A stretch of 64,000 nucleotides of DNA from Candidatus Levyibacteriota bacterium (GTDB lineage: Bacteria; Patescibacteriota; Microgenomatia; Levybacterales; UBA12049). The position numbers and the translations under genes are program-made. Shown piece after piece: positions 640-22,057 of this stretch (positions within the stretch are counted from its first letter, which is position 1; each line of letters begins with the position of its first letter). Location: positions 64,931 through 128,930 of the forward strand of contig DAIDHK010000003.1 in the NCBI GenBank assembly GCA_027459725.1, given 5' to 3'. Under the pieces are notes generated by a model. That model made no database searches. It was not told the origin of the DNA and saw only the letters and a list, made by a program, of their open reading frames with translations.

Positions 640-2158
640 ATGAAAGCAGTTATTTTAGCCAGAGTTTCAACGGCAAGACATGAAGAGGAAGGACTTTCTT
701 TAGATAACCAGCTATAAACTCTACATGACTATGCTCAAAAAAAAGAACTTGAGGTAGTAAGAGAGTACAGATTTAGTGAAAGTGCAGACCGCAAGATTAG
801 AAAAAAGCTCCTCGAAATGGTTGGCTACGTCGTTAAGCAACATCCTGAAGTCAAAGCCGTTATAGCTTACAGAGTTGGCCGGATAACAAGAAAATATCGT
901 GATGCCGTTGCAATGGATGACCTACGACTTGATTGCGACAAAGAACTTCATCTAGTTTATAACCGACTAATAATGGATAAGACAACAGTAGGACGGGAGA
1001 TTGTAGACTGGGACTTGAAAGTGTTTTTAGCCAAACAATACCTAAACCGCTTGAAAAAGGATGCTAAAAATAGTGCCATGTATAAACTGAAAAATAACGA
1101 ATGGCTTCAAAAAGCTCCTTACGGATACCAGAATATAACGCAGGAAGACAAAAAGAAATGGATAATACCTGACCCATTTGAAGCAAAAGTTGTTGAAAAA
1201 ATGTACGAGTGGTATTCATCAGGCAGTTTTTCCATGCTTGAGGTACGAGGTAAGGTCAAAGAAGTATTTGATCTTACCTTTTCAAAAAGATACGTTAACG
1301 CAATTCTCAAGAATAAATTTTACTACGGCATTATGGTATATGACGACAAAGAATATCCTCACAATTATGAACCGATAATAGCACCTGACTTATTTGAAAA
1401 AGTTCAACAAATAAAGGCTGGCTATAACAGGAAGCATTTTAAATTTACTGGCTTACCTTATGTTTATAGAGGGTTTTACAATGCATGACGTGCGTGTGCA
1501 TGATTACACCTGAAAAGAAAAAAGGTAAATATATTTATTACCATTGCACGCAATATCGCGGCAAACACGAAAACGCAAAATGGGTAACAGAGGATGATCT
1601 AACAAGCCAATTCAAACAATACTTCAGTGGCTTTGAGATGTCTCAGGAAGCCGTAGATGATATAACACAGAGCATATGAGAAGCAGACAAGGATAAATCT
1701 TATTTTCATCGTTCTTTACTGGATAATTACAATGCACGGTACCAAAAATATGAAGATATGATTGAGCGTGCTGCGGTAGTATTACTGAGAGTTACTATAA
1801 CAAAAAGCGTGATGAGTTAAGGAGAAAACAGAAGAGTATACAAAAGAAGATAGCCAAACTACAAATCGCTGACGAAGAGTATTATATAACCTCAGATTAC
1901 ATCTTAGACCTTGCAAAACGAGCGCCTGAATTGTATGAAAGTTCTGAACCGATTGAAAAACGACAACTTTTGAAATTTACACTTCAGAATTAGCAATTAG
2001 ATGGTAGTTTAGCTTGCTATGACGAGATAAAACCATTTGACACAATACGAAAATATGCAATGCGTCAAGCTTGGCTCCACATCGTACACAACGTTAGAAT
2101 TATTCTAGAAAGACAAGATGAGTATATTTACATACCAGACTTAAGACAAGTTGCATAA
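640..2158 (+). pseudogene. Large serine recombinase (resolvase/invertase-family integrase), disrupted
   Basis: N-terminal 'AVILARVSTARHEEEGLSLDNQL' ends at an in-frame TAA (715-717). The same frame then continues as ORF 817-1488, which is homologous to the intact recombinase at 20534-21997 (GSFSM, KFTGLPYVYRG). At least two further frameshifts follow (1485-1679 'YYHCTQYRGKH' zinc-ribbon part, then C-terminal fragments to ~2158). Confidence 0.7.
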
Positions 2159-2213
2159 ATTGACTCGCCACGCATTCCGCATGATATTTCCAGTTACAAA
2201 CCGATTTTAAAAC

Positions 2214-2738
2214 TCATTGTAGACCAATACTATAACGTACTTCGTTTACTTTAAAACCCCTGCTGTGAGTAACTGTCTTCGTTCTCCCTTCAACTCTCCA
2301 CCCTTTTGATTCATACCATTTCCTCGTTTTTTCATTTGTATCTAATACCCATAATGTAGCTTTTTTATATCCATCTTCTTTTAAAACTTTTTTTGCTCTT
2401 TTCATTAACTTCGATCCTACACCTTGGTTTGCATATGCAGGTAATATATAAATTCCATGCAATTCTCCTGTATCCTTTGATACATCCTCATCACGATTGA
2501 CGCCGAATGTACACCATCCCACCACTTGACCATTGACTTCTGCAACATAAGCATATACACCTTTTTCTAAATTCTCAAGTTGATTTTTCCAGCTTTCTGT
2601 CCTCTTATTTATGGATAAACTGTCCAAGTAAGAATCTGGAATTTGTCCTTTATATGCGTGTTGCCAGGTTTTTATATGAACAGTAGCAATTCCATAAGCA
2701 TCATTTGGCTCTGCGAGCCTAATACGAACGTCTTTCAT
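2214..2738 (-). CDS. GNAT family N-acetyltransferase
   Basis: Typical GNAT acetyl-CoA motif 'VNGQVVGWCTF...QGVGSKLM'; 174 aa. Confidence 0.8.
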   Translation of the reverse strand: MKDVRIRLAEPNDAYGIATVHIKTWQHAYKGQIPDSYLDSLSINKRTESWKNQLENLEKGVYAYVAEVNGQVVGWCTFGVNRDEDVSKDTGELHGIYILPAYANQGVGSKLMKRAKKVLKEDGYKKATLWVLDTNEKTRKWYESKGWRVEGRTKTVTHSRGFKVNEVRYSIGLQ

Positions 2739-2951
2739 ACCTGAATTATATCAGGTTCAAATCCCACTGAGGTCATTTTTGTTTTGAGACAACGAAAAAA
2801 ATGAGTTCATGGCTAGCTATCGATGCTCCCCTAGTTACACTACCTCATACCAATAGATTACGCGCCTGCAGTCCAACCTATTTTTAATGTTGGATACTTT
2901 GTAGAGATGAAACAGAAATGGGAAGAAATAAGATGATTACAAAACAATCAC

Positions 2952-3164
2952 TTACTCCGAAATTTTTAGTGCCTCTAGTTGCTTTGGAGGACACTTGCTA
3001 TCTGCATACGAGCAAAAAACACAACAGTCTCCTTCTTTTGGTTTAAGCATCTGTCCACAGTGAATACATTTATAGAAATGCTGGCAGGCATTTGTCGGCA
3101 TCTCTACCTCCTGAATAAAGTGACAAAAGGGGCATGTCAGATGTGCTTTTGTTTGAATATCCAT
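2952..3164 (-). CDS. GDCCVxC-domain small zinc-ribbon protein. Probable true start is at the internal Met; the track ORF extends to 3221 into the IS terminal repeat
   Basis: Motifs 'CPFCHF', 'CIHCGQ', 'GDCCVFCSY'. Confidence 0.45.
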   Translation of the reverse strand: MDIQTKAHLTCPFCHFIQEVEMPTNACQHFYKCIHCGQMLKPKEGDCCVFCSYADSKCPPKQLEALKISE

Positions 3165-3169
3165 ATATT

Positions 3170-4310
3170 CATTATAGCACTGCATTGAATAGATACCCTG
3201 TAATGTACGCGTCACCCACATTTCGGAAGATTGGTTTCAATAAAAGTAATTGGTGACATGTAATGAAGTGACCTATGAGGTCTTTGATAATTGTACCAGA
3301 AGAGATATTTGGTGAGTTTTCTGTTCATAGCTGGGATATCATAGTAGATCTCATCATTTCGTAAGATAAACTCCTCTTGTATCGTTCGGTTAAAACGCTC
3401 AATGTAGGAATTAATCTTTGGCATGCGAGGATAAATGAATTGGTGCTTTATATGCTGTTCTTCTAAGTAGGCATGAAAATTTTTGAGAAACTCCGAGCCA
3501 TTATCTGTATGCACAGTGTGAATCTTTGTTGGATTCACTTCCTGAAACTGCTGGAATACGTTCTTCGCCATTGCTGAGGAGAGATTGGGTACATAGACAG
3601 CAAGAGCAACTTTGGTAAACACATCAATCACATTCATAAACAAATGTTTCTCGTAGTTAATGTACACTACCACGGAGTCCATCTCCACAAAGCCAGGTGT
3701 GTTCACTTTTGGAGATTTTCGAACTCTGAGCTTTTTGAACTTGTTTTGCTGCTTCTGTGGATACACTCTATGCTCAAACGTAAACTTTCTTCTTTTGATA
3801 ATCTTCCCAATAGTAGTAGCACTGATACTTGCAATGCCAAGCTCTTTTGCATACGCATCCATAAAGGGTTTAATGATATTCTTGCCAATATTTCCATGCT
3901 CTTTGCGTAGTTCTTTAATCAGCGCTATCAATCGCCAGTCTGTCTCCATCTTGCGTACATGTTCAGGTCGTGTCCCGTGAGGTACAAGGCTGCTGACTCG
4001 TCTTCCATGCTTTTCAAACGTTCGCTTCCAGGTGTGGAGTGTTGTTTTCTTTAGTTTAAATGCTTCTAGTGTTGGTTTGAGTCCATATTTGTAGTAATGG
4101 GTAAGCACATGGTAACGAAACTGAGCAATGTCTGAAACTTCTTTTGAAAGACTATCCTGCAGCATTTTCATCTGCCATATGATAGCTCTTTTGTGAGTAT
4201 TTTGGTCGTAAATATCTGACTCGTTTAAAATCTGTTGGCATAGTCTGTTTTTATGCCATCGTCCGAAATGTATCGCTACTTATTCAATAGTTATAATAAG
4301 ACGCTATAAG
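3170..4310 (-). mobile_element. IS481-family insertion sequence (approximate ends)
   Basis: Single transposase ORF flanked by imperfect terminal inverted repeats. Left: 'TTATAGC...CATTGAATAG...ACATTTCGGA' at ~3172-3228. Right: 'TCCGAAATGT...TATTCAATAG...GCTATAA' at ~4262-4309. The transposase stop lies inside the repeat, as is usual for IS481. Confidence 0.5.
3212..4171 (-). CDS. IS481-family DDE transposase (rve integrase core)
   Basis: 319 aa with an N-terminal HTH and a DDE core ('HTDNGSEF', 'YIERFNRTIQEE', 'YNYQRPHRSL'). Confidence 0.8.
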   Translation of the reverse strand: MKMLQDSLSKEVSDIAQFRYHVLTHYYKYGLKPTLEAFKLKKTTLHTWKRTFEKHGRRVSSLVPHGTRPEHVRKMETDWRLIALIKELRKEHGNIGKNIIKPFMDAYAKELGIASISATTIGKIIKRRKFTFEHRVYPQKQQNKFKKLRVRKSPKVNTPGFVEMDSVVVYINYEKHLFMNVIDVFTKVALAVYVPNLSSAMAKNVFQQFQEVNPTKIHTVHTDNGSEFLKNFHAYLEEQHIKHQFIYPRMPKINSYIERFNRTIQEEFILRNDEIYYDIPAMNRKLTKYLFWYNYQRPHRSLHYMSPITFIETNLPKCG

Positions 4311-4494
4311 AGGGTCTGAGATGCTCTAAATATAACTTGCTCCCTCAGCCTTGGATTACTCTTAGCATAAACTATACTTCAATCATTCAATTTTTTCGGG
4401 ATGAGAGATATATTGGAGAATTGAGACAGAGGTGGATAGAAATAAAAAAGTTACAAAGCGTAAATTCTTTAACAATTTAGTTTTTACCAAGCTA

Positions 4495-4677
4495 TTATCT
4501 GTTGCTTTTATTTAATCCAGCATAATATCCAGCAAAAAGTAGGAGTATACCCATTAGGATAAGTGGTAAAACAATAAAAATTGGTTTTACTGACGGCGTT
4601 GCAGCAATTGGCGCAGAGGAAGCTGCTGAGACACAGGCAAGAACACTTAGAATAATTGATTTACGCTTATTGTCCAT
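4495..4677 (-). CDS. Small hydrophobic membrane protein
   Basis: 60-aa ORF with two predicted TM helices. Confidence 0.25.
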   Translation of the reverse strand: MDNKRKSIILSVLACVSAASSAPIAATPSVKPIFIVLPLILMGILLLFAGYYAGLNKSNR

Positions 4678-4721
4678 AATGTTATTTTTGTTACCAGTCT
4701 TCCTGATTATAAAAACACTTT

Positions 4722-5114
4722 TTACTTAACTTTCTTTTCTGTATTTATTTTTACTGCTTCTTGGATAAGTGCTTTTAACGCTGCTTCGTCAATTTTTCCA
4801 TTTTCAAAGAAATCAATTGCGCGAACAGTTTTACTATCAAGCCGTGTGTTGAAAAGCTTCTTTGGGTCTTTTATCTGAGCTCCTTTAGGAAAAGTGAGTC
4901 TTACTGCATTCTTAAGGGTATCTGCAACACAAAGCATTCCATCATGAGACCAAACAGGAACTCCTTCTGGTTTGGAAGGCTTTTTCCACTTCACCTCCTC
5001 TATTATTTGTAGATCCGCATTTTTTAATATATCTCGAAGCTGTGATAGTACCTTGCGCCGCCAATCACTTATATTTCTGATTATGTCGTCTATTTCTTGA
5101 GATGGAGTTTTCAT
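4722..5114 (-). CDS. DUF1801 (YdhG-like) domain protein
   Basis: 130 aa; pattern 'IDDIIRNISDWRRKVLSQLRDIL...VKWKKPS' resembles the DUF1801 family. Confidence 0.5.
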   Translation of the reverse strand: MKTPSQEIDDIIRNISDWRRKVLSQLRDILKNADLQIIEEVKWKKPSKPEGVPVWSHDGMLCVADTLKNAVRLTFPKGAQIKDPKKLFNTRLDSKTVRAIDFFENGKIDEAALKALIQEAVKINTEKKVK

Positions 5115-5133
5115 TTCTTCTATTATACAGTAA

Positions 5134-5619
5134 ATGTCAAAAAGTCGGTTGTGCTACACTTATTTTATGGCTATTCTACTATTGAAAATCTTATTGTTGC
5201 TCCTTAGTATTCATGCAGTGGTAAAGCCTTTGTTTTTCTACTTTCTTAGCTACAATACTAGACGCAAACAGCTCGATAAATCGTACGGAAATAAAAATAC
5301 TGCCACAAAATTATTCGACAATGTGATTTTGTTGGTTTTGCTAGTTTTAATTATCTTGCTGGTTATCTCTGGACAAATGCAGTATATAAGTTTTGCGGTT
5401 GGGTTATATGTTGGCGCTACTTTAATTCAAGTATATTTTCATAGTTTTTCCAGTCAGTTACCAGAAGATAAAGCTCCTAAATCACCTACATCTCCAATAA
5501 AAATCATGTCTTATGCAATTCAGGCAAACCCTGAAAAACCTTGGAAATCTCTTTTATTTATTAGTGTTCTTTTCCTTTGGGTTATCTATATGCTTTTGAC
5601 GATAGGATTCAAGTTATAA
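5134..5619 (+). CDS. Hypothetical membrane protein
   Basis: ORF with several hydrophobic segments. Confidence 0.35.
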   Translation: MSKSRLCYTYFMAILLLKILLLLLSIHAVVKPLFFYFLSYNTRRKQLDKSYGNKNTATKLFDNVILLVLLVLIILLVISGQMQYISFAVGLYVGATLIQVYFHSFSSQLPEDKAPKSPTSPIKIMSYAIQANPEKPWKSLLFISVLFLWVIYMLLTIGFKL

Positions 5620-5766
5620 TAAGAAGCTACCCATCACTCTCTGAGGTTCTAACTCTAACCTTGCTCACACTGATCAACACGTTTAGAACCTATGATTGGC
5701 TAAATGAGTATGAACCGATGGATATGACCACGAGATATATGCAGGGGATAATTATATAGTTCCTCG

Positions 5767-6525
5767 TTATTTTGTCGGTACTGCAGTTTCACAAATATAG
5801 AGTATGTTATCAATGAGCTTGAGATCCCGAGGTGTTATCTCTCCTCGTACTCTTTTGGTTCCCAGGGACGCATTTAGGTTGTTTAATATATCAGGTCTAT
5901 TATCAAAATCTATGGGCACATGGCTCAACTTCAAAGCCTTTCCGTGCACGTCGAATAGATAATTTGTTTCGAACCCGTTATATCCGGTTTCCTCTAAGTA
6001 GGCAAGTGCTCTGTCTCTGCTACTGTCTTCCATATGCGCTCCTACTGCTACACTATGCATAGGATCAACACCTAGTGGTTTTAGCTCATCTCTACGAAAG
6101 TGTTCTATATTAGCTTCAAAAACAATTCCGCCATTGCCTAAAGCAGTCGGGATAAAACCTTTACCACCATATAAGACTCTCTTTTTTGCTAAAATTCCAA
6201 AATCTTCATACTCGTACATCAAATCTAATGATTTGTTTCCAAAGGTAAACTGAATAATTCCATTCGCATTTGTAGGAACTCTTGAAAGTACGTCGCCTAT
6301 ATTATACACACGAGTTGCCAATTCTTGGATAGTTAGTTCAACTTCACCTAAAATATTGTTGCGACCAATTGAATCAGGAATCAAACCTCTTCTTCTAAGA
6401 ACAGATGCTTCTCTTCGAAGATGTTGTGCGCCCGTGCTGTAACCAAATCTTGCAAGATCTATAGCTAATTTTTCTAATTCTGCTGCCATGGAAGGAATAC
6501 TATCAGATTTAAAGGAAGAATACAA
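5767..6525 (-). CDS. Hypothetical protein
   Basis: 252-aa ORF with protein-like composition and no recognisable motif. Confidence 0.45.
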   Translation of the reverse strand: MYSSFKSDSIPSMAAELEKLAIDLARFGYSTGAQHLRREASVLRRRGLIPDSIGRNNILGEVELTIQELATRVYNIGDVLSRVPTNANGIIQFTFGNKSLDLMYEYEDFGILAKKRVLYGGKGFIPTALGNGGIVFEANIEHFRRDELKPLGVDPMHSVAVGAHMEDSSRDRALAYLEETGYNGFETNYLFDVHGKALKLSHVPIDFDNRPDILNNLNASLGTKRVRGEITPRDLKLIDNILYICETAVPTK

Positions 6526-6719
6526 CTATAAGATGTTATCCTCATGCTTATCATAGTACAAAGTCATTTTGCATTTGAATTAATTCTTCAATTAAGAAAA
6601 CTATATAATCAAAAAATTGTGAAAGCTCAGAATAGTCTTTGCTAACGATCCTTGTCACTCCACGCTGTTTTAATTGTTCATTAAACTCCGTTCAGTTTAC
6701 GATATTTGAGAAAAGTACA

Positions 6720-7937
6720 TTACTGACTTTCTAGAAGCGATGATAGCTGTCGGTTAATAAAAAATAGTGTTGACGAGCCTGTAATATCATAAATTTGGCT
6801 TGCATAAGTCTCAATTTCAAACTTATTCCAATCGAAGTTATTAAATTGGTTCTTATTCATCTGGATCTGCAAAATACCTGCGGTGTTATCTGCATTAACT
6901 GTGTGTGTAGCTATATAAGCAATTTGAATTTGCTGAACTGCATCAAATCCAAATACCGAATTTCCAAAAATTTGTAGATCTAATGCAGCATCATTCATGA
7001 TTGACATATCATTTAAATAATCATTTGATTCAAAGGTAAGAATTGCTATCCCATTTAAATCATCGAAGGTAATCTCAGCATCCTTATTTCCGCCATTCGA
7101 TAAATAGGCTTGTGTTAGTTGATATCTTATTGTACCCGGTATAGGCGTAGGAAGATCTTGCTTAATAAGCGATATGGATGTTGTGGGTACAGAGGTTGGT
7201 GTCGATCCTGAAGTGCTTTGAGCAGTTGGAAGAGCTGTAACTTGATGATTGTCCATTTCATAACACGACCCAGCTTCCTTCCAGCCCAGCGAACCGTTAC
7301 CAAGGTAGGTACACCAGAGACCGGGTATAACCTGCAATTCAAGATCAGATGCATCATCGCCCCAATTAATTTCTTCTGCTGTTTTCTTATCGAGCTTTGT
7401 CCCTATGAATTCTTGATACGTCGTATGTCCATATTGATCTTCCACTGGTCCCCAAGCACCAATATTTACCAGCTGTACCGGAGGTTTACTGTTATGATAG
7501 ATTGCCGTATAGATATCACTCATATCTTTTTTAATACCATCTCTCGTAAGTGAATTAGAAAAGTTTTGGTTAATATTGAAATCCACATTCACGGTCTGAC
7601 TATCGGAATTATACTCAAAATCCCGAAGCCGCGGTTGTGGGGGGGTATCATTATTGCTACCGGACAAGATATCTGCAACGGATGGAAATTTTGTAATATC
7701 TTTGTTTGCTTGGAGAATTTTTTGAGGAATATTAATTTGAGGAGATGAATTGCTCGCAGGTGTAGTAATGCCACCTAAAACCAAAAAAATAATTGCTGCT
7801 ATACCCCAGCCAAGAGATAGATTTTTACGGGAAGGGATTGATCCTGTCTTTTTGTTTTTATAGCTACTTGGACTGATGATACCTATAATAAGTGTGATCA
7901 GTGAAAACAAAAAAAGGAGAATAAAAATATAGTTCAT
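6720..7937 (-). CDS. Membrane-anchored secreted two-domain protein with a Ser/Thr-rich linker
   Basis: N-terminal TM helix and an S/T/P linker 'QSTSGSTPTSVPTTS'; start overlaps the upstream ORF (ATGA). Confidence 0.45.
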   Translation of the reverse strand: MNYIFILLFLFSLITLIIGIISPSSYKNKKTGSIPSRKNLSLGWGIAAIIFLVLGGITTPASNSSPQINIPQKILQANKDITKFPSVADILSGSNNDTPPQPRLRDFEYNSDSQTVNVDFNINQNFSNSLTRDGIKKDMSDIYTAIYHNSKPPVQLVNIGAWGPVEDQYGHTTYQEFIGTKLDKKTAEEINWGDDASDLELQVIPGLWCTYLGNGSLGWKEAGSCYEMDNHQVTALPTAQSTSGSTPTSVPTTSISLIKQDLPTPIPGTIRYQLTQAYLSNGGNKDAEITFDDLNGIAILTFESNDYLNDMSIMNDAALDLQIFGNSVFGFDAVQQIQIAYIATHTVNADNTAGILQIQMNKNQFNNFDWNKFEIETYASQIYDITGSSTLFFINRQLSSLLESQ

Positions 7938-8164
7938 AACTTTTGTACGAAAGTTATCAGATAACCAATACTAAATCCAGCATAGTAAGCAATCGTGTCA
8001 AGATCTAAAACAAAAAGAAGTAGAGCGATAATGCCCAAAAAGAACAGAATTATCTTACGACTGATTTTATCTCGAAACAGTTTCAGGGCTATCACTGGCA
8101 CAAATATCTCTAACAGGAATAACAAGATCGTTAGAAAGAAAAGAATACCAAGTACGGCGTGCAT
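7934..8164 (-). CDS. Small membrane protein, translationally coupled to 6720-7937
   Basis: 76 aa with 2-3 TM helices; its stop overlaps the downstream start. Confidence 0.35.
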   Translation of the reverse strand: MHAVLGILFFLTILLFLLEIFVPVIALKLFRDKISRKIILFFLGIIALLLFVLDLDTIAYYAGFSIGYLITFVQKL

Positions 8165-8280
8165 AAATAGCTTACCTCATCACTATAACACTTACTTTCA
8201 GCTTGTCAAGGCTCTTTTCGTGCGCAAAGTATGTATATATCGCTAATCCTGCTTGTTATTATTGTGGAAAATGTCGCTAT

Positions 8281-8505
8281 ATGGCATTTTATTTTACCAA
8301 TAGTCAGAAAGAGGAGATCGGGAAAAACATCCGTCGGATCAGACGGAAGAAAGGCTTAAAACAGATCGATGTAGCGACCGCCGCTACGATCAATGAATCT
8401 TATTACTCCAAGGTAGAAAAGGGTCTGGCGAATATCACGCTCGAAAAGCTCTATAAAATTGTAAAAGCGCTGGACAGCCGAAGCGAAGATATTTTACCAT
8501 TCTAA
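8281..8505 (+). CDS. XRE-family helix-turn-helix transcriptional regulator
   Basis: HTH 'IRRIRRKKGLKQIDVATAATINESYYSKVEKG'. Start is placed at the internal Met because the track ORF's N-terminal 26 aa look non-coding. Confidence 0.6.
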   Translation: MAFYFTNSQKEEIGKNIRRIRRKKGLKQIDVATAATINESYYSKVEKGLANITLEKLYKIVKALDSRSEDILPF

Positions 8506-8538
8506 TCCTCATTCTTTACCAAGTCCACGCTTCACATA

Positions 8539-11811: not shown

Positions 11812-11858
11812 GCGAACCCATTGATAACTGGCAATGGTCAGAACAAAATAAAATAACT

Positions 11859-14244: not shown

Positions 14245-14516
14245 GGCTGAATTATACCATGCCCTTTAAGACAGGTTAATTTTCTTTTATATGATGACTA
14301 AATTAGCGATGTAATAATAAGGTAATAGTAAATGTAGAAGCCTAAGCAATTAATTCTCTCAAACAGAAATGAGATCTTATAATTTTTCTATCAATCTTTT
14401 GCTCATCAGTCAAATTTTTAGCTTGTTCACCAAGAATTTTTCTTGCTTTCTTCATATCCCTGCTCTTGAGTATACGTTACTCGAGCACTATAATGTAGCC
14501 GAAGATGTAATGAATT

Positions 14517-15620: not shown

Positions 15621-15685
15621 CCTCATTCTTCCGTATACGGAACGTAAACAGTTGGGTACGATTTCTCTTGTCTACACTCTGTTTA

Positions 15686-15826
15686 ATGACAACAAAAAAT
15701 GACAGTCAAAAACTAAAAACATTTCTCGAGCAGGTATATGGGAAAGAACTATCTGAAGCTGAAATTCAGGAATATAAAAACCGCTTAGTAAAACTCTTTG
15801 GTCTTTTTGTGACTATTGATAAATGA
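15686..15826 (+). CDS. Small hypothetical protein (46 aa); its stop overlaps the next ATG
   Basis: Short ORF 'MTTKNDSQKLKTFLEQVYGKELSEAEIQEYKNRLVKLFGLFVTIDK', below the track cutoff. Confidence 0.2.
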   Translation: MTTKNDSQKLKTFLEQVYGKELSEAEIQEYKNRLVKLFGLFVTIDK

Positions 15827-15849
15827 ACAAACAAGAAAAAGTAACGAAC

Positions 15850-16140
15850 ATGAAGATTTCAGAAATCCAAATTATACCTATAAAACCACAAAATGGTTTA
15901 GTAGGCTTTGCCAGCTTTGTTTTAGACAACAATATTTACCTAAGCTCCATTGGTATTATTACTCGGCCTGAAGGTGGTTATAGACTTCTTTATCCAACCA
16001 AAAAAGTCGGAATTAAAAATATTAACATCTATTATCCAATAAATAAGTCCTTTGCTACCTGTATTGAAAAGGGGGTCATCGATCAGTTTGAAAATGTAAT
16101 GAAAAAATATGATAGACACGATGAAACTGACATTAGATAG
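15850..16140 (+). CDS. spoVG: SpoVG-family nucleic-acid-binding protein
   Basis: 'MKISEIQIIPIKPQNGLVGFASFVLDNNIYLSSIGII...' matches the SpoVG N-terminal consensus; start placed at the internal Met. Confidence 0.55.
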   Translation: MKISEIQIIPIKPQNGLVGFASFVLDNNIYLSSIGIITRPEGGYRLLYPTKKVGIKNINIYYPINKSFATCIEKGVIDQFENVMKKYDRHDETDIR

Positions 16141-17245
16141 AAGCATGATCGCATTGATTGATAAAGATCTATTTCAAAAAGAAACACAGAATGCCTCACG
16201 AGGCTACTTTACACTCGTGCAAAATCCTACAAAATCAGAGCTACAGAATGGTATTTATAAACCTCGTCTAACACTTACAAAGAGATTTAATACATCAGGA
16301 CAACGAGGGCTGACACTGGCAATAGAGTTTTCTGCTCCAAAATTACTTTATGGTAATAACTTTGATGAGCTTGTGAACAGCGACTTCAATACTGTTATTT
16401 ATAAATTGGAAGAAGTATTAAAAAAAATGGGTGTAAGAGTGTTCCATGAATTACTTTTAGTCGCGCCTGTCTCAGCAATTCACTATTCTAAAAATATCCC
16501 TCTTACCGATGGTACTACGCCTCACTACCTTATTAGCAAGATAAAAGAAGCAAATATATCACTTGCTCTTGACGTAAACCAAACCGATTATAGAAATGAT
16601 GGACACAGCTATAAATGGCATGCTAACTCATATGAAGTAGCGTTTTACGACAAAATCAAAGACCTTGAAGCAGCAAAGAAAAGTAATAAACGAGCAATTG
16701 AAAAAGATAATGCGCTCCAGCTTCACTTGTTTGAAGACTTACAAAGAAAACGTTTAGAAATATTTCGGATGGAAGTACGACTCAACAGTAGACAAAAAAT
16801 GAAACAGTTATTTCCAAATCTGGGCATTGAAACAAAATTAACTTTTCAAAGTTTATTTACAGCTCAAATTTCTCAAAAAGTACTTTTGTATTATCTTTCA
16901 GAACTAGAAAAACGAAGACCGAAAATCATAGATTATCAAACTAAAAGATCTAAAGCTCTTTTGGCAGATATTATAGTTAATAATCCCACTCTTGGAGCAC
17001 AAAAAACTCTACAACTATTTGGTCTCAAACAAGCTATTGATGCCATTACTCCCCGTGAATTACGAGCTATGTTCGGAAATCAAAGCACTAGAAGCTGGTA
17101 TCGATTAATTACTGATGCTAAAACAGTTAAACTACCAGCCACACAAAGTCCGTTTCGCATAGTTCGTGAACGTTTGAATAAATTTGAGCCTCTTAAACTA
17201 GTTGACTTTCAAGACAAAATGATAAACAATGATAAATATAATTAG
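16109..17245 (+). CDS. Hypothetical protein, possibly a Rep_trans-like replication initiator/relaxase of an integrative mobilizable element
   Basis: 378 aa, located just upstream of the excisionase-like HTH gene; Tyr-containing stretch 'HANSYEVAFYDK'. The functional assignment is inference only. Confidence 0.3.
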   Translation: MIDTMKLTLDRSMIALIDKDLFQKETQNASRGYFTLVQNPTKSELQNGIYKPRLTLTKRFNTSGQRGLTLAIEFSAPKLLYGNNFDELVNSDFNTVIYKLEEVLKKMGVRVFHELLLVAPVSAIHYSKNIPLTDGTTPHYLISKIKEANISLALDVNQTDYRNDGHSYKWHANSYEVAFYDKIKDLEAAKKSNKRAIEKDNALQLHLFEDLQRKRLEIFRMEVRLNSRQKMKQLFPNLGIETKLTFQSLFTAQISQKVLLYYLSELEKRRPKIIDYQTKRSKALLADIIVNNPTLGAQKTLQLFGLKQAIDAITPRELRAMFGNQSTRSWYRLITDAKTVKLPATQSPFRIVRERLNKFEPLKLVDFQDKMINNDKYN

Positions 17246-17420
17246 TATGTCAGAAGAACAATATTACTCTATTGAAGAAGTAGCAAAGATGCTAAAAGTA
17301 GCTTATTTAACTGTCTATCGATGGATACAAGCAAAGAGACTCATTGCTTTAAAAGCTGGTAAACAATATAGAGTTACAAAAAAAGATCTAGATGCTTTTC
17401 TCAATAGTTACAAGGGATAA
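17229..17420 (+). CDS. Excisionase-family/MerR-like HTH DNA-binding protein (putative Xis or recombination directionality factor)
   Basis: 'YSIEEVAKMLKVAYLTVYRWIQAKRLIALKAGKQYRV' resembles the excisionase-type HTH_17 domain. Confidence 0.6.
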   Translation: MINIISMSEEQYYSIEEVAKMLKVAYLTVYRWIQAKRLIALKAGKQYRVTKKDLDAFLNSYKG

Positions 17421-17426
17421 ATCGTT

Positions 17427-20400
17427 ATGAACTTAATAAACAAAAGACTATTAGCTCAAAAGATAGAATCGTTTGAGTTTCCAACAGGAGAAAAACAAGT
17501 ATTATCAAAGAAGCTTATTAATGGCTGGCAAAAAGCATTAAAGGATAGTGATTTAGAAAAAACAAAAGAAAAAACAGTACAGGGCAAATTTCTTAATACT
17601 TTCTTTGAAGAAATTTTAGGATATACGGATGTAACAATTGGACAAAACGAATGGACTTTAATTCAACACCCCAGAATTGAAAATGACAGCATGGAACCTG
17701 ATGGCAGTCTAGGATGGTTTACAAAAGACCAAAAGCTCACACGAGCTGTTATTGAATTAAAAGACGCTAAGACTCCTTTAGACAAGAAACAACTAAGTCG
17801 AGTTGGAAAGTATACACCTATAGAACAAGCCTACCTTTATGCAACAAAATATGAAGGATGCAACTGGATTATTGTTTCTAACTTTAAAGAAATAAGACTT
17901 TATAATAAGCAGAAAACACAAGAATATTACGAAAAGTTTGATGTTCTAGATTTAAATAATGAATCAGAATTTAAACGTTTTTATTATTTGTTTTCTAAAG
18001 AAAACTTTCTATCGAAGGATAAAGAAAGTACCATAGACATCTTAGCAAAGGACACGACTGTTGAAGAACAAAATATTACTAAAAAGTTTTACTCTGAATT
18101 TAAACAAATTAGACTAGATTTATTAAATCATCTCGTAAACCATAATCCTACGTTATCAAAAGATGTTTTGTTAGAAAAAACTCAGAAACTTTTAGATAGA
18201 TTTATATTTACACTTGTGTGTGAAGATACAAGTAGTTTACTTCCCCTTAATATAGTTAAGGATACGTATGAACGAGCAATAAATTCCTTCTCACCTACCG
18301 ACGAGCGTGTATGGACTGAATTTAAAGGATTATTTCTTGCAATAGATAAAGGTAACAGTAGAGTAAAACCTCCTATTAACGCATATAATGGAGGGCTGTT
18401 TGCTTTTGATAATGTTCTAGACAATTTAAAAATAAAAGACGATATATGGGAGCAATTAATCGAGCTTGCGAAATATGACTTTGAGACTGATCTTAATGTG
18501 AATATTTTAGGTCATATTTTTGAACAAAGCATCTCAGATTTAGAATCAATTAAAGAGACAATCACTTTGGGGCTTGAAAACGGAGGTAGTTTGCTAACTG
18601 AAGATGGTAATAAAATTGAGATAGGATCAAAAGAGACTACTAAGGAAAAAGTTGGCAAACGCAAAAAGGATGGTATCTTTTATACGCCTGAATATATAAC
18701 TCGATATATTGTTGAAAATACAGTAGGAAAATATTTAGAGGAACACCCTGATAAGTTAGAAACAATAAAAGTACTCGATCCAGCTTGCGGAAGCGGAGCA
18801 TTTTTAAATCAGGCTCATTCATTCCTTTTTAAAGAACATCGAAATAGATATGAAGCTAAAATAAACGAGAAGTTAGAAAGAAAAGAAAATCTTACATTGT
18901 TTGACTACAACCCAGCAGAAGCAGATAGAAGTATTCTGTTAAATAATCTTTATGGTGTGGATCTAAACATAGAGAGCGTAGATATTACTAAACTTGCCTT
19001 ATGGCTGAAAACTGCAAGAAGAACTGAACCACTACAAAGTCTTGATAAAAACATTAAATGTGGCAATTCTCTTATTGATGACGCTACTATAGCAGGTAAG
19101 CACGCTTTTACTTGGAAGAATGAATTTAAGGATATACTCGAATCTGGTGGGTTTGATGTAATCATTGGAAACCCTCCTTATGTATTTGGAAGAGAAAAAT
19201 TTAGTGAAATTGAAAAAACTTACTATAGCCAAGCCTATAATTCATTTGAATATCAAACAAATCTTTTTATATTATTTATCGAGCAGGCTATACGATTACT
19301 CAAATCTCAAGGCTATCTAGGCTTTATCATTCCAAACTCACTCCTAAAAATTTCATCCGCTAAAAAACTTAGAAAGTACCTTTTTGAACATGGTGCTGTA
19401 AAAAACATCATTAATCTTTATGGTGTGACGTTTGAAGATGCAAGTGTTGAAACAGTCATTCTAATTTTCCAAAAAAATGTCGAGCAATCGGACGTAAAAA
19501 TCTTAAATGTGTATGAAGAAAATGATATTACACTACAAAAGTATAAAATTGTTGATGGTATAAAATGGAAACAGAATATAAATTCTGACTTTGACGTATT
19601 TATAAATATAAATGACGAAAAAATTCTTCAAAAAATGCATACTCATACACATCATTTAGAAGTCAGTTTTGATGTTAAGGCAGGTTTACAAGCGTACGAA
19701 AAAGGGAAAGGTATACCGATTCAAACAGCAGAAGATGTCATAAACCGACCTTATGACTTCCAAACAAAAGTAGACGAAAATACTTATCCCTATTTAGATG
19801 GAGTAAACATTGTTCGCTATTATCAAAACGGCTATGCCTATTGGTTGCGATACGGAGAACAATTAGCCGCACCTAGAACTTTTGATATTTTTGAAAGACC
19901 AAGATTACTAGTAAGAGAAATTACTTCAAATTTTCCAAGAGCAATTATTGCTACTTATTTAGATGAAATTTACTTAAACAATAGAAGCATAATCAATATC
20001 CTTTCTCCCCAAAATGATCCTAAATCCTTAAAGGCACTATTGGCAGTGCTAAACAGTTCTTTAATTTCTTATTATTTTGAGAAGACCAATCCCAAGGCAA
20101 ATCGGAAAATGTTTCCCAAAATTATATTACAAGACTTAAGAAAATTTCCTATTCCTCCTATTAACGATAAAGAAAAAGAACTTCTTGCTGAAAAAGTTGA
20201 CATAATGATTGACCTTAATAAAAAATTTTACAAAGCTACTTATGAAGCAATTTTATTCCTTAAAGAAGAATATTCCATCAATAAAATATCATCTAAATTA
20301 GAAACTTTCTATATGCTTGGTTGGAATGAATTTTTTCAAGAACTTGAAAAATCTAAAATAAAGTTAAATATTACTAAAAAAGAAGAATTACATTCTTGGT

Positions 20401-20537
20401 TTAAATCGAAACAAGATAGTTTAAACGGAATATTAAAGCAAATTAGTACAATTGATAAACAAATTGACCTATCTATTTTTGATTTATACCACATAACACC
20501 AGAAGAAAAAGAGATTGTAGAATCAACGGAATCATGA
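17427..20537 (+). CDS. Type IIL/IIG restriction-modification enzyme, MmeI family (fused PD-ExK endonuclease, N6-adenine methyltransferase and target-recognition domain)
   Basis: N-terminal 'EPDGSLGW...AVIELKDAK' is a D-x(n)-E-x-K motif. 'FFEEILGY' and 'IIVSNFKEIRLYN' match the MmeI N-terminal pattern. Methyltransferase motif I is 'DPACGSGAF' and motif IV is 'IGNPPYV'. 1036 aa. Confidence 0.7.
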   Translation: MNLINKRLLAQKIESFEFPTGEKQVLSKKLINGWQKALKDSDLEKTKEKTVQGKFLNTFFEEILGYTDVTIGQNEWTLIQHPRIENDSMEPDGSLGWFTKDQKLTRAVIELKDAKTPLDKKQLSRVGKYTPIEQAYLYATKYEGCNWIIVSNFKEIRLYNKQKTQEYYEKFDVLDLNNESEFKRFYYLFSKENFLSKDKESTIDILAKDTTVEEQNITKKFYSEFKQIRLDLLNHLVNHNPTLSKDVLLEKTQKLLDRFIFTLVCEDTSSLLPLNIVKDTYERAINSFSPTDERVWTEFKGLFLAIDKGNSRVKPPINAYNGGLFAFDNVLDNLKIKDDIWEQLIELAKYDFETDLNVNILGHIFEQSISDLESIKETITLGLENGGSLLTEDGNKIEIGSKETTKEKVGKRKKDGIFYTPEYITRYIVENTVGKYLEEHPDKLETIKVLDPACGSGAFLNQAHSFLFKEHRNRYEAKINEKLERKENLTLFDYNPAEADRSILLNNLYGVDLNIESVDITKLALWLKTARRTEPLQSLDKNIKCGNSLIDDATIAGKHAFTWKNEFKDILESGGFDVIIGNPPYVFGREKFSEIEKTYYSQAYNSFEYQTNLFILFIEQAIRLLKSQGYLGFIIPNSLLKISSAKKLRKYLFEHGAVKNIINLYGVTFEDASVETVILIFQKNVEQSDVKILNVYEENDITLQKYKIVDGIKWKQNINSDFDVFININDEKILQKMHTHTHHLEVSFDVKAGLQAYEKGKGIPIQTAEDVINRPYDFQTKVDENTYPYLDGVNIVRYYQNGYAYWLRYGEQLAAPRTFDIFERPRLLVREITSNFPRAIIATYLDEIYLNNRSIINILSPQNDPKSLKALLAVLNSSLISYYFEKTNPKANRKMFPKIILQDLRKFPIPPINDKEKELLAEKVDIMIDLNKKFYKATYEAILFLKEEYSINKISSKLETFYMLGWNEFFQELEKSKIKLNITKKEELHSWFKSKQDSLNGILKQISTIDKQIDLSIFDLYHITPEEKEIVESTES

Positions 20538-21997
20538 TGAAAACAATAATAATAGCAAGAGTATCAACAGAAGAGCAGAAAGAAGCGAACAATTCTCTAC
20601 CCGCTCAGATTGCACGACTCAAAAAGTACAGTCAAAATAAAGGCTTTGAAATAATCAAAGAGTTTAGCTTTGATGAAAGTGCATATAAGACCCAGCGTAA
20701 TGATTTTGATAGTATTCTAGACTATGTAATCGAACAAAAAGATAAACTAGCTGTTTGCTTTGATAAGGTAGATAGACTATCCCGCAATATTTTTGATAAA
20801 CGCGTATCTATGCTCTATGAGAAGGCACTAAAAGACGAGATAGAGCTTCATTTTGTATCAGACGGACAAGTAATAAATAGTCAGCTATCCGCAGTAGAAA
20901 AATTTAATTTTAGTATCAGTCTTGGGCTTGCTAAATACTACTCTGATGCTATAAGCGATAACGTCAAACGAGCACAAGAACAAATGCTTCGAATGGGAAC
21001 TTATCCAAGTAGACCTTCATTTGGTTACAAGCGAGTACCCATAGGAAAAGATAAGACAGAAATTGTAATTGATGAATTTGCTTCTCGTATCGTTCAAAAA
21101 GCCTACGAATGGTACGCAACTGGTAGCTTTTCAATGGATTTACTACGCAAGAAGTTAAAAACAGAATACGGTGTTAATTGGTCACATGGCTGGACTGATA
21201 AAATCCTCAAAGATACATTTTATTGTGGAGTAATGAAATGGAATAAGAAGTTATACCCACATAAATATCAGCCAATTATTACTAAATCCCTATTCGACCA
21301 AGTACAGCTAATAAAAGTTGGGTTTAATAAAAAAAGATTTAAGTTTGCAGGTTTACCTTATATCTACAGAGGCTTACTACGTTGTGGGCATTGTGGACTA
21401 TCTGTAACACCTGAAAAGCACAAAGGGCTAGTCTATTACCATTGCACGCAATATAACGGCAAACATGGGGCTGAATGGCTACGGGAAGAAGATATAACTA
21501 ACCAGATAGGAAATGTCTTTAAGAATATGCGTGTGCCTGAATGGGTTATAGAACAAATCGTTGACGCATTACGGACAACGCATGAAAGTAAAATTGATTT
21601 TCGAGAGAAGCAATACAGCAAACTATCAGAAGAACACGAAATGTATAGTAAAAGACTAGAAAAACTATACCTTGATCGATTAGACGGGCGTATTACTGAT
21701 AATGAGTATGACAAATTTTATCAGTCCTTCCGTGAACAGATAGCAGATATTGATACTCGACTAAGTATGCTACAAGAAGCAGATGATAACTACTACATCA
21801 CGGCTAAATACCTGTTAGAACTGGCAAATAAAGCGTATGAATTGTTTGTAAGTTCGGAAGTTGAAGAAAGAAGGCAATTAATCAAGCTTGTACTATCGAA
21901 CCTTAGAGTAGAAGGTAAAATAGTCCGATATGACGCCCAAAAACCTTTTGATACGATACTAAATTTCGCTGATCATCAACGTTGGCTCCGCGACTAG
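20534..21997 (+). CDS. Large serine recombinase (integrase type)
   Basis: 'IARVSTEEQ' catalytic region, zinc-ribbon 'RCGHCG...YYHCTQY', coiled-coil C-terminus. Start overlaps the RM gene stop (ATGA). The stop TAG at 21995-21997 lies inside tRNA-Asn. Confidence 0.9.
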   Translation: MMKTIIIARVSTEEQKEANNSLPAQIARLKKYSQNKGFEIIKEFSFDESAYKTQRNDFDSILDYVIEQKDKLAVCFDKVDRLSRNIFDKRVSMLYEKALKDEIELHFVSDGQVINSQLSAVEKFNFSISLGLAKYYSDAISDNVKRAQEQMLRMGTYPSRPSFGYKRVPIGKDKTEIVIDEFASRIVQKAYEWYATGSFSMDLLRKKLKTEYGVNWSHGWTDKILKDTFYCGVMKWNKKLYPHKYQPIITKSLFDQVQLIKVGFNKKRFKFAGLPYIYRGLLRCGHCGLSVTPEKHKGLVYYHCTQYNGKHGAEWLREEDITNQIGNVFKNMRVPEWVIEQIVDALRTTHESKIDFREKQYSKLSEEHEMYSKRLEKLYLDRLDGRITDNEYDKFYQSFREQIADIDTRLSMLQEADDNYYITAKYLLELANKAYELFVSSEVEERRQLIKLVLSNLRVEGKIVRYDAQKPFDTILNFADHQRWLRD

Positions 21998-22057
21998 GAT
22001 TCGGACCTAGAACCTTGAAGTTAACAGCTTCCTGCTCTACCGTTGAGCTATCGCGGA
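21983..22057 (-). tRNA. tRNA-Asn (anticodon GTT), with encoded CCA
   Basis: Hand-folded cloverleaf. Acceptor UCCGCGA/UCGCGGA is a perfect 7 bp. D-arm is GCUC-AACGGUA-GAGC. Anticodon loop is CUGUUAA. T-arm is CUAGG-UCCGAAU-CCUAG. Discriminator is G, followed by CCA. Confidence 0.85.

Follow-up and report, generated by a model that had tools for sequence, protein, structure and literature searches.

The large serine integrases of phages and ICEs (A118/LI, Bxb1, phiC31, TP901-1, SPbeta) have a common architecture, in which a Resolvase domain carrying an R-V-S motif is followed by a Recombinase domain and a zinc ribbon, and their junctions share only a very short core. SCCmec and other SCC elements rely on CcrAB or CcrC large serine recombinases; their insertion site is the 3′ end of rlmH/orfX, a conserved housekeeping gene that stays functional, and they stack in tandem as composite islands. 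Among systems with tyrosine recombinases, pSAM2 carries a rep-xis-int block adjoining attP, and phage Mx8 targets a tRNA gene. AICEs of the pSAM2 type are described as small integrative plasmids of 8–17 kb that occupy the 3′ ends of tRNA genes (PMC2440964), and the attP of the Mx8 IntP/IntX and SSV-type integrases lies within the integrase gene, so that integration yields a new 3′ end and an altered C-terminus (PMC6070905; PMC4383910). tRNA gene 3′ ends are said not to be used by serine integrases (PMC4383910; PMC7192596).

We analyzed a 64,000-nucleotide stretch of a Candidatus Levyibacteriota genome (the window), in which positions 640–22057 probably hold small plasmid-like integrative elements arrayed in tandem at one tRNA-Asn 3′ end: two complete small mobile elements (E1 and E2) and the wreck of a third (E0). 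The recombinases share the architecture and very short junction core of the phage and ICE enzymes, but are distant from them in sequence (TP901-1, E = 3.7e-5 over the catalytic domain; XisF and CcrB models far under their cutoffs), their attP lies inside the integrase coding sequence, and the elements, hosted by Patescibacteria and Dependentiae, are without phage or conjugation genes. As in SCC, large serine recombinases occur together with 3′-end insertion that spares the housekeeping gene and with tandem stacking at one site, whereas the CcrB model reaches 70 bits against a cutoff of 900, a tRNA takes the place of rlmH as target, a single terminal integrase per element stands where SCC has an internal ccr pair, and the integrase ORF itself crosses the junction. 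The order of E1 (Rep-like gene, HTH_17, cargo, integrase, att site) matches that of pSAM2, but AICEs have tyrosine integrases and long tRNA-derived direct repeats, and they also carry FtsK-like transfer genes, of which the present elements showed none. The Mx8/SSV-type enzymes, with which the intragenic attP is shared, are tyrosine recombinases; here, what is exchanged is a conserved tail, about 34 aa long (P′1), which in arrays ends up joined to another element's integrase. Islander-type tyrosine-integrase islands also have a tRNA 3′ end as target, a tRNA-proximal integrase gene, tandem arrays and an intact tRNA, but the present locus lacks a tyrosine recombinase and any displaced tRNA fragment of at least 15 nt, and only a 5–8-nt core is repeated.

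The integrase–tRNA junction

The single tRNA within the window is a tRNA-Asn(GTT) on the minus strand (21983–22057, ARAGORN; Rfam RF00005, 62.8 bits over 21986–22057), which is intact, encodes its CCA and is the integration target. Integrase A (20534–21997, plus strand, 487 aa), the intact terminal integrase of E1, has Resolvase, Recombinase and Zn_ribbon_recom domains, and the family alignment shows no variation at its residues R9, V10 and S11. Its last codons are TGG CTC CGC GAC TAG; the Trp codon is the antisense of the encoded CCA, and antisense tRNA-Asn supplies the final four codons (WLRD) and the stop (21995–21997), which lies 15 nt within the tRNA 3′ end. A sequence-only reading of this DNA had reported the overlap and taken it for the attachment junction of an element targeting the tRNA-Asn 3′ end through a large serine recombinase, and both points hold. 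In this junction, J3 (attR; 21960–22010, plus strand), the integrase A 3′ end (P arm) is followed by the core TGG CTCC and by a B′ arm made of the tRNA acceptor and T-arm, with the T-loop antisense TTCGGAC at +18. To the right of the tRNA, the genes (ECF sigma, HlyD/FtsX/ABC) resemble host backbone, again as first read.

We compared 79 related genomic loci from Patescibacteria and Dependentiae. The tRNA 3′ end coincides with the same conserved integrase Trp codon in 57 of them (ARAGORN; tRNA-Asn, -Arg, -Glu, -Gln or -Asp), and five further loci have a group I intron-split tRNA-Asn at this codon. Because the conserved codon sits on the tRNA CCA end in about 62 of the 79 loci, the overlap is a family-wide rule, far beyond chance. 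Antisense-tRNA C-termini are likewise present in 97 of the best 120 of 2254 integrase A homologues (cluster representatives), and housekeeping genes flank the far side of the tRNA in annotated loci (L002, with rpoD and dnaG, and L172). The integrase family was absent from 2.9 million viral contigs (best full-length match 33% identical), and the proteins of the elements gave no functional PHROG matches; by these comparisons, the elements are not phage-like.

Elements E1 and E2 and the relic E0

E1 (about 13344–21985, plus strand, about 8.6 kb) extends from the P′1 arm to integrase A. Its left junction, J2 (13341–13445, plus strand), is a hybrid attL in which the core GTG CTCC precedes the P′1 arm, which encodes a conserved 34-aa tail, LPLIDIFRKEEMQIDISLTNIKTIYETFNIALY. 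This arm occurs in 21 loci, in 9 fused to LSR2, the terminal integrase of E2, and in 12 as a tail only, behind unrelated sequence; it displays codon-position periodicity, none of the 21 copies contains a stop codon, and the tail was found in none of the best 120 of the 2254 integrase homologues. E1 further contains two minus-strand ORFs (13442–13801 and the HEPN-like 13795–14244), an ORF at 14517–15620, SpoVG (15823–16140), a Rep-like protein (16109–17245, plus strand, 378 aa), an excisionase-family helix-turn-helix protein (HTH_17; 17229–17420, plus strand, 63 aa; Pfam HTH_17 E = 2.4e-15) and, as cargo, a type IIG restriction-modification enzyme (Eco57I/MmeI-like; 17427–20537), the RM system of the sequence-only reading. 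The Rep-like protein, which matches no sequence family, is a candidate Rep_trans-like initiator by which E1 may replicate as a rolling circle. Upstream of the integrase, 60 loci have a Rep-like gene and 28 have SpoVG. In L001, L002, L082, L169 and L172, HTH_17 again follows the Rep-like gene and precedes the integrase; it is a candidate recombination directionality factor. Seven loci carry a single E1, with a tail-only attL and an integrase/tRNA-Asn attR 7.9–11.0 kb apart; in all seven, attL joins non-recombinase DNA to P′1, and the identity common to both ends is only G CTCC. The gene order of L007/L172 is that of E1 in the window, but with Fic in place of the restriction-modification gene.

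E2 (about 2075–13343, plus strand, about 11.3 kb) consists of the P′2 arm, cargo, backbone and LSR2. Its cargo, mostly on the minus strand and without homologues in the other loci compared, includes GNAT (2214–2738) and DUF1801 (4722–5114) domain matches, a Cys-rich ORF (2952–3221), and membrane and unknown ORFs up to 8164. Inside the cargo lies an IS481-family insertion sequence (3218–4271, minus strand), recognized in the sequence-only reading, with a 14-nt terminal inverted repeat (3218–3231 and 4258–4271) and a transposase (3212–4171) that matches rve/rve_3 and scores 142 bits with NCBIfam transpos_IS481, under the 224-bit cutoff. The plus-strand backbone comprises HTH_3 (8203–8505), an ORF (8539–9324), DUF5659 (9412–9684), a Walker-A protein (9677–11152, 491 aa) and an ORF (11185–11619). 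DUF5659 and both HTH genes had been named before and are present; the Walker-A protein had been called a P-loop NTPase, for which it has a Walker-A-like motif (APSSSGKS) but no match to any family. The backbone order recurs in L082 (minus-strand cargo, HTH_3, replication-type protein, LSR2, then tRNA-Asn), and shorter parts of it, ending with LSR2, occur in L001 and L169.

LSR2 (11859–13343, plus strand), with Resolvase, Recombinase and Zn_ribbon_recom domains, is the second large serine recombinase noted previously; its ORF continues to 13445 because it is fused to the P′1 arm of E1. About 35 of 38 close homologues (57–76% identity) have antisense-tRNA tails (for example WLRD-stop, WLPG-stop or ..DSN..). 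In L082, where E1 is followed by P′2, E2 and LSR2, the LSR2 homologue ends inside tRNA-Asn (11805–11879), and on the evidence of this arrangement LSR2 is an independent tRNA integrase.

E0 is known only from a pseudogene (640–2079, plus strand) of an int-type large serine recombinase, its terminal integrase, which would represent an older, displaced element. The relic aligns over its full length with integrase A at a direct-repeat spacing of about 19.9 kb, in tblastn pieces in three frames (640–1476, 1473–1676 and 1775–2077; 35–45% amino-acid identity), and contains in-frame stops; its Pfam Recombinase match (817–1488) is the fragment reported earlier. The displaced integrase is decayed and the tRNA-proximal one intact, as successive insertion predicts. 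At junction J1 (2071–2110, plus strand), a hybrid attL reading CAAGCT TGG CTCC ACATCGTACACAACGTTAGAATT, the relic 3′ end (P arm) is joined through the core T TGG CTCC to the P′2 arm of E2, in which a T-loop mimic, TTAGAAT, lies at +23; the motif is placed likewise in eight other P′2 arms, and L169 shares the variant as TTAGAAC.

The internal element boundaries lie at about 2075 and about 13343, with TTGGCTCC (2071–2079) and GCTCC (13343–13347) as the sequence common to the junctions. Position 640, given before as the island's start, is the start of the pseudogene; leftwards, the array reaches the window start or runs past it, and its true limit cannot be placed within the window. The region is composite, as proposed, but rather than one element with cargo, it appears to hold three insertions made one after another (relic, E2, E1), with one of its three recombinases as the terminal integrase of each.

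Attachment-site geometry and stacking

At the homologous codon, each of the junctions J1, J2 and J3 has NNG CTCC; the repeated core is only 5–8 nt long, and all three share only G CTCC. The sequence-only reading had looked to a direct repeat of the tRNA 3′ segment as the sign of an element, and no second copy of the 22-nt or 15-nt segment was found with up to 3 mismatches. Such an absence is expected for serine recombinases, the direct-repeat test being suited to tyrosine integrases; since the junctions repeat a short core only, that test would have rejected a true element. The proposed comparison with relatives lacking the insertion yielded no empty tRNA-Asn site, the best flank homologues (51% identity) being on small contigs without a tRNA.

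The element-side arms mirror the T-loop of the tRNA. TTCGRAC lies at +23 in P′2 arms versus +18 in the tRNA, and the P′2 profile best matches the tRNA side when shifted by +5 (0.434, versus 0.19–0.34 at other shifts; 9 of 9 arms), whereas the P′1 peak is weak (0.387 at +6). The P′ arms mimic the acceptor end and T-loop, with the T-loop motif about 5 bp farther from the core, an arrangement that lets serine integrases distinguish attP from attB. This displacement matches the published rule for LI integrase, whose zinc-ribbon-domain motif occupies base pairs 16–24 in attP and 11–19 in attB, about 5 bp farther out in the element arm than on the host side (PMC3783163).

In the free circle, each integrase gene would read through its own attP, with approximately the last 8 codons before the core as P arm and a P′ arm encoding a further C-terminal tail. 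Because the gene crosses its own attachment site, integration would replace the integrase C-terminus. Recombination is predicted inside the core G CTCC, which is antisense to CCA's first C, the discriminator and the bases at the start of the acceptor, and would leave an intact tRNA adjoining an integrase gene that now ends in antisense tRNA (WLRD-stop). As the occupied site would retain the whole tRNA half-site, a later element could insert between tRNA and resident, shifting older elements leftwards and fusing the older integrase to the newcomer's P′ arm; the likely order here is E0, then E2, then E1. Standard serine-integrase rules disfavor recombination of attP with an occupied attR, and we infer insertion beside a resident element from the arrays. 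These occur in both orders, E2-E1 in L001, L003, L013, L018, L040, L074 and the window, and E1-E2 in L017, L077, L082 and L169; in L023, a distance of 9.7 kb separates two int-type genes. Two loci fit poorly: in L072, an integrase fused to a P′2-type tail lies 2.7 kb from a seemingly unoccupied tRNA-Asp, and L045 has a P′ arm in inverted orientation, 93 nt upstream of an integrase.

Alternative readings of the array

The elements could have inserted as described and now be immobile, fixed genomic islands, a possibility we consider real but the less likely one. No excised circle or attP junction was seen for any E1, an insertion sequence has entered the E2 cargo, the E0 integrase is a pseudogene, and the P′2 and P′1 T-loop mimics of the window deviate from consensus (TTAGAAT and TTTAGGAAA). 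However, the ORFs of both integrases (A and LSR2), of HTH_17 and of the Rep-like protein are all intact, and the TTAGAA variant also occurs in L169. The P′1 tail is open in 21 of 21 copies and has coding-type periodicity, a pattern implying that selection still acts on the excised form throughout the family.

It is considerably less probable that a single composite element makes up the region, equipped with a pair of active integrases and two attP sites (integrase/P′2 and LSR2/P′1) and able to open at either; the window would then hold the form integrated through the site at the integrase 3′ end. Integrase-P′2 and LSR2-P′1 fusions are common and in frame, both orders are found, which a circle able to open at either site would predict, and co-excision of a tandem array would yield such a circle. 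Yet the seven single-E1 loci hold the E1 half only, with P′1 on the left and integrase/tRNA on the right, a product of a single recombinase that is possible only if P′1 belongs to the integrase; moreover, for LSR2, about 35 of 38 close homologues are located directly on a tRNA, and a composite element has no need of the third, decayed integrase at J1. An incidental overlap through gene crowding, with recombinases that act as invertases or resolvases and have nothing to do with the tRNA, has almost no probability left: overlapping genes are numerous in small genomes and some sources name homologues "DNA invertase Pin-like," but the junction rule (about 62 of 79 loci, five tRNA identities, two phyla), together with the single-E1 junctions, effectively refutes it. 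Housekeeping genes also lie beyond the tRNA in the annotated loci, and the enzymes have the full three-domain large serine recombinase architecture.

A tandem array of serine-integrase elements thus remains our preferred reading. We found no paper that describes this tRNA-targeting serine-integrase family; in the literature found, tRNA 3′ ends are not a known target of serine integrases, and the present family targets them.

Integrase genes and tRNA 3′ ends

The open reading frame at 20534-21997 (+) encodes a 487-residue protein (integrase A) with Resolvase, Recombinase, and zinc-ribbon domains, and its stop codon lies 15 nt inside the 3′ end of tRNA-Asn(gtt) at 21983-22057 (-). This overlap had been claimed in a sequence-only reading of the window, and ARAGORN, Rfam (62.8 bits), and the sequence of the ORF all confirm it; ARAGORN finds no other tRNA in the 64-kb window. 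The gene ends ...CAA CGT TGG CTC CGC GAC TAG, with the Trp codon TGG forming the antisense of the encoded CCA. In the T-loop of this tRNA (21998-22008), TCCGAAT as compared to TTCGAAT in relatives, position 55 is C instead of the nearly universal U; the tRNA as a whole still scores 62.8 bits.

Integrase A matches PF00239 (Resolvase) with an E-value of 9e-19, as does a second large recombinase in the window, LSR2 (11859-13445), with an E-value of 6e-17, and both score above the gathering thresholds of PF07508 and PF13408. An alignment of 43 family members shows R9, V10, and S11 to be invariant, with the conserved catalytic Arg and Ser nucleophile in place. By domain content, both proteins are bona fide large serine recombinases, related only distantly to any studied member of that class. 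No match to Phage_integrase (tyrosine recombinase) was found in 33 ORFs scanned across 1-27121.

At E ≤ 1e-20, integrase A has 2254 homologues, nearly all unnamed and from Patescibacteria-type metagenome assemblies. Their sequences agree up to ...KPFDTILNYADxQ(L/A)W, past which a few tail classes split off. In 97 of the 120 top homologues, the Trp is followed by 2-4 residues (LRD, LPR, LPG, CAR, RP) or by ..DSNLEP..., tails that are antisense translations of the tRNA acceptor stem and T-arm. Scanning one genome per species gave 79 loci from Levy-, Woese-, Pace-, and Roizmanbacteria, Saccharibacteria, and Dependentiae/Babeliales, and in 57 of them the opposite-strand tRNA located by ARAGORN begins exactly at the conserved Trp codon. 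Patescibacteria loci have tRNA-Asn as the target, and those of Dependentiae have tRNA-Arg, -Glu, -Gln, or -Asp. Five further loci, negative in ARAGORN, have the 3′ half of tRNA-Asn followed by a group I intron (RF00028; L003 11478-11692, L005 11495-11697, L008 4998-5193, L010 11496-11723, and L073 11498-11684); ARAGORN overlooks these tRNAs because the introns split the genes. Group I introns have recently been described in Patescibacterial tRNA-Asn genes (PMC13011429). Several assemblies with these elements (L005, L007, L008, L013-L015, and others) bear the title "uncultured Gammaproteobacteria" or "Pseudomonadales"; in both their elements and their tRNA-Asn context they match the Patescibacteria ones, their contigs look like candidate-phyla DNA, and they are probably mislabelled bins, whose titles were disregarded here.

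Past the tRNA, the two loci with an annotated right flank continue into housekeeping-type genes (rpoD, dnaG, and ruvABC in L002; signal peptidase, helicase, and photolyase genes in L172). The family-wide coincidence of Trp codon and tRNA, together with these flanks, identifies the junction as an attachment site rather than a result of gene crowding. A direct repeat of the tRNA-Asn 3′ segment, proposed in the sequence-only reading as the mark of the opposite junction, is absent: with up to three mismatches, the 22-nt and 15-nt segments match nothing in the window except the tRNA itself. Since serine recombinases need only an identical 2-bp centre, this absence is no argument against integration, and we rejected a long tRNA repeat as a valid test for an enzyme of this class. 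Nor does the GC profile mark a boundary, since its range within the array (0.31-0.44) overlaps that outside (0.34-0.39). Over the window's final kilobase (63001-64000), GC content is down to 0.21, compared to 0.30-0.44 elsewhere.

Probable stacked insertions at tRNA-Asn

The sequence-only reading had interpreted the region as a single island with cargo at a tRNA attachment site; the attachment site and the composite nature stand, and the anatomy has to be replaced. We also considered 2080-21989 as a single 19.9-kb element with the WLxxxxxLRTFxW tails as the integrase's own attP. About a fifth of the integrase homologues do have long non-tRNA tails with a weak common motif, and about 18 of 23 homologues so tailed have Arg at the ninth position of the tail. 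L082 and L169 were examined as permuted circles, and neither contig has a terminal overlap. The single-element model was abandoned because seven single elements begin on the left with the LSR2 tail alone, because LSR2 homologues end in tRNAs, and because L082 ends in tRNA-Asn.

The tail in question, the C-terminal 34 residues of LSR2, is a strongly conserved block, LPLV(D/N)xF(K/R)NREIEFGFSLQNIQTVFETF.., encoded by NNG CTC CCC YTR GTA... and present in 21 loci, fused to an intact LSR2 in 9 and alone in 12. The 12 tail-only copies lie behind unrelated sequence with nearby stops, 5-9.5 kb upstream of an int-type integrase (the type of integrase A), and at seven of these loci that integrase ends in tRNA-Asn at the other side, 7.9-11.0 kb away. 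These seven loci are complete single elements of one type, E1. As the block stands alone opposite the integrase and tRNA-Asn in all seven, it is best regarded as the element-side attachment arm of the int-type integrase (P′1) and not as part of LSR2.

About 35 of 38 close LSR2 homologues carry antisense-tRNA tails, and the homologue in L082 terminates within tRNA-Asn at 11805-11879; from these comparisons, LSR2 appears to be a tRNA integrase in its own right. Combined with the order in L082 (partial E1, integrase, TTCGAAC-type arm, minus-strand cargo, HTH_3, PrimPol, LSR2, tRNA-Asn), this points to a second type of element, E2, whose arm (P′2) is the TTCGAAC-type one. Both single elements and stacked arrays are observed, the latter in both orders of E1 and E2. 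Distant LSR2-like proteins of 552 residues (P0285, P0287, P0292, P0294, and others) end in ..VWRRVWNDFRTLKWIEEIDYPE..., the kind of tail found behind the integrase in L082; the JGI clusters P0285 and P0287 have 19-23 members, and these proteins may represent excised forms or an array type that is common.

We read the window as successive insertions on the tRNA side. A decayed int-type integrase at 640-2079, the relic of element E0, aligns with the intact integrase A gene over its full length, in pieces in three frames with in-frame stops and 35-45% identity. It retains ...CAA GCT TGG CTCC at the homologous position (2066-2079) and then turns to non-tRNA sequence, so that junction J1 (2072) consists of TGG CTCC followed by P′2. 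E2 (about 2075-13343) ends at J2 (13341), where GTG CTCC is followed by P′1, and E1 (about 13344-21985) extends from the P′1 arm through integrase A to J3 (21983), where TGG CTCC is followed by tRNA-Asn. The insertion next to the tRNA, the newest, has an intact integrase and the oldest is a wreck, as successive tRNA-side insertion predicts. Just upstream of the relic, the window starts within an Acyl_transf_3 gene that could be E0 cargo; hence, the window does not fix the left limit of the array.

E2 consists of minus-strand cargo, which includes an IS481-type insertion (3218-4271), and of HTH_3, DUF5659, a Walker-A protein, and LSR2. Domain searches recovered the island genes named in the sequence-only reading, except that its "P-loop NTPase" (9677-11152) has only a Walker-A-like motif. 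IS481 is the best NCBIfam model for the 3218-4271 insertion, at 142 bits (below the 224-bit cutoff), and the insertion has rve domains and a 14-nt inverted repeat. This element (3212-4271) abuts and overlaps the 5′ end (start codon) of a Cys-rich 89-residue ORF with CxxC repeats (2952-3221), which has no family match. The E2 cargo has no DNA match in the plasmid collection, and the proteins at 8539, 9677, 14517, and 16109 match nothing in Pfam, PHROGs, NCBIfam, or PDB sequence searches. For the 378-residue protein at 16109, a fold search gave the sole lead, and we compared the protein, a candidate rolling-circle initiator, with those of the Rep_trans (pT181/RepD) type, whose hallmarks are the Rep_trans fold and a catalytic tyrosine.

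In the circular form, each integrase gene would span its attP: the E1 circle would join ...CATCAACGTTGG|CTCCCCTTAATAGATATATTTAGG..., and the E2 circle ...AAGAAATGTG|CTCCACATCGTACACAACG.... An occupied site would stay a target, since the tRNA half-site is kept and the left arm on the host side lacks conservation anyway. No excised form was observed, and no empty tRNA-Asn site was found in the collections searched, which contain no close relative of the source genome. The integrase and the ECF sigma factor have no exact-protein matches; a metagenome scan with the latter found relatives at only 50-51%, on 1.9-2.4-kb contigs that carry no tRNA, and the right flank of the window is present in 0 of the 79 loci.

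Two configurations are not accounted for by stacked insertion. At L072 (10004-14291), an integrase with a P′2-type tail lies 2.7 kb from a seemingly unoccupied tRNA-Asp/Asn/Val cluster, with just two minus-strand ORFs in the interval and no integrase relic beside the tRNA. At L045 (1000-1066, -), an inverted P′-type arm, identical to that of L072 at 22 of 23 nt, precedes by 93 nt the start of an integrase gene with its end in tRNA-Arg; the arm may be an inversion product.

Attachment core and T-loop mimicry

Comparison of attL with attR in the seven single-element loci leaves G CTCC(CC) as the sole identity shared by both ends, and the junctions observed in the window have TTGGCTCC and GCTCC in common. 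Crossover would thus fall within G CTCC (+3 to +7), outside of which no position is identical in every attL/attR pair; motif spacing likewise puts the centre of the site at about +4 to +7. No identity step relative to L169 is discernible across J1, the P′ arm being too diverged (about 60%).

In the P′2 arms, TTCGAAC or TTCGGAC begins 23 nt after the T of TGG, and the antisense of the tRNA T-loop, TTCGRAC, lies at +18. We compared profiles of nine P′2-type arms and 22 tRNA-side junctions (B′ arms) and observed a match with a sharp maximum at +5 (0.434, versus 0.19-0.34 at other shifts). The peak holds for all nine P′2 arms; that of P′1 is weaker and lies at +6. In the LI/A118 integrase, the zinc-ribbon-domain motif occupies base pairs 16-24 of attP half-sites and 11-19 of attB (PMC3783163), and the +5 offset conforms exactly to this attP/attB spacing rule. 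We infer that the TTCGRAC motif is bound by the zinc-ribbon domain. In the attP arms, the acceptor end and T-loop of the tRNA are mimicked with the 5-bp offset that the structural model of attP/attB discrimination predicts, which lends this model natural, sequence-level support and offers a readable code for target choice.

A second block, TGGA(A/T), is conserved at +36 to +40 from TGG in the P′2 arms of L009, L023, L041, L072, and L082. It sits past a 25-bp half-site, is missing from the P′2 arm of the window (about 2107-2111), and may reflect either an accessory site or a constraint on coding.

The P′1 tail and relation to known elements

The E1 element of L007/L172 consists of P′1, two minus-strand ORFs, a homologue of ORF-14517, SpoVG, a Rep-like gene, HTH_17, Fic, and the integrase, followed by tRNA-Asn. 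Window positions 13344-21985 follow the same gene order, with a type IIG restriction-modification gene instead of Fic in the cargo slot. The 63-residue HTH_17 protein (17229-17420), located between the Rep-like gene and the integrase, is by position a candidate directionality factor. The slot of the two minus-strand ORFs at the E1 left end of L172 is occupied in the window by a 119-residue ORF overlapping a 149-residue ORF (13442-14244, -), the latter with a weak HEPN match (E = 3.9e-4, below cutoff); the two may form a toxin-antitoxin or defence pair. In L170/L171 (1596-9773), an int-type integrase with a non-tRNA tail precedes a 430-residue ORF, SpoVG, and genes for a DnaB-type helicase and a Toprim protein; with its different replication module, this set of genes appears to be yet another type of element.

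Conservation of the P′1 tail extends well past a 25-bp half-site. Codon periodicity (entropy at position 2 < 1 < 3) is evident both within and past the att portion, and none of the 21 copies contains a stop codon, including the 12 that are fused to nothing. The simplest reading of this coding conservation is selection on the excised form, where the tail would be the C-terminus of the E1 integrase, and the protein would then differ between its free and integrated states. Integration would remove the ∼34-residue tail and put 3-15 antisense-tRNA residues in its place; in arrays, the tail would pass to the integrase of the neighbouring element. It is possible, if on balance doubtful, that the tail acts as a functional C-terminal module only while E1 is excised, providing state-dependent control of directionality or activity.

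These elements combine features otherwise known separately. With SCC they share stacking at a housekeeping gene's 3′ end, with pSAM2 the rep-xis-int layout in a tRNA 3′ end, and with Mx8 an attP within the integrase gene; Mx8 is a phage whose tyrosine integrase differs as a protein between free and integrated states (PMC6070905; PMC4383910). Despite the shared stacking, assignment to SCC is rejected on scores (CcrB 70 bits against a cutoff of 900, CcrA 55-59 against 700, and CcrC 40 against 900) and on the target, which is tRNA-Asn and not rlmH. A prophage is contradicted by the lack of virion or packaging genes among PHROG matches and of close viral relatives: among 10 island proteins scanned, LSR2 alone matches an assigned function (integrase/invertase), the cargo ORF 6720-7937 matches a PHROG of unknown function, and the integrase family has no close relatives in IMG/VR, its best full-length match there being 33% identical. 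An Islander-type island would call for a tyrosine recombinase and a displaced tRNA 3′ repeat, and neither is present.

Serine integrases serve as the principal tools for the insertion of large DNA; in nature, they mostly target idiosyncratic protein-coding genes. tRNA targeting by these enzymes has been stated to be unknown (PMC4383910) and, in a survey with 14 of 297 predicted cases in need of proof, "not reported previously" (PMC7192596); a minority of tycheposons with a large serine recombinase is mentioned without detail. The full-text literature searched contains no account of the present integrase family, and an earlier description may exist in subscription journals, which were mostly outside that search.

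As a rule, the members of this family of more than 2000 proteins from Patescibacteria and Dependentiae target tRNA genes, of at least five identities, and this explains the odd, variable C-termini of many recombinase ORFs in these genomes. The family identifies a common type of mobile element in two reduced-genome lineages that are poorly understood, and it supplies candidate integrases whose targets rank among the most conserved sequences in biology. If the state-dependent role of the P′1 tail were true, the physical state of the element would switch its integrase between two protein forms, in addition to target recognition through mimicry of the tRNA T-arm, which would let one enzyme family use several tRNA identities.
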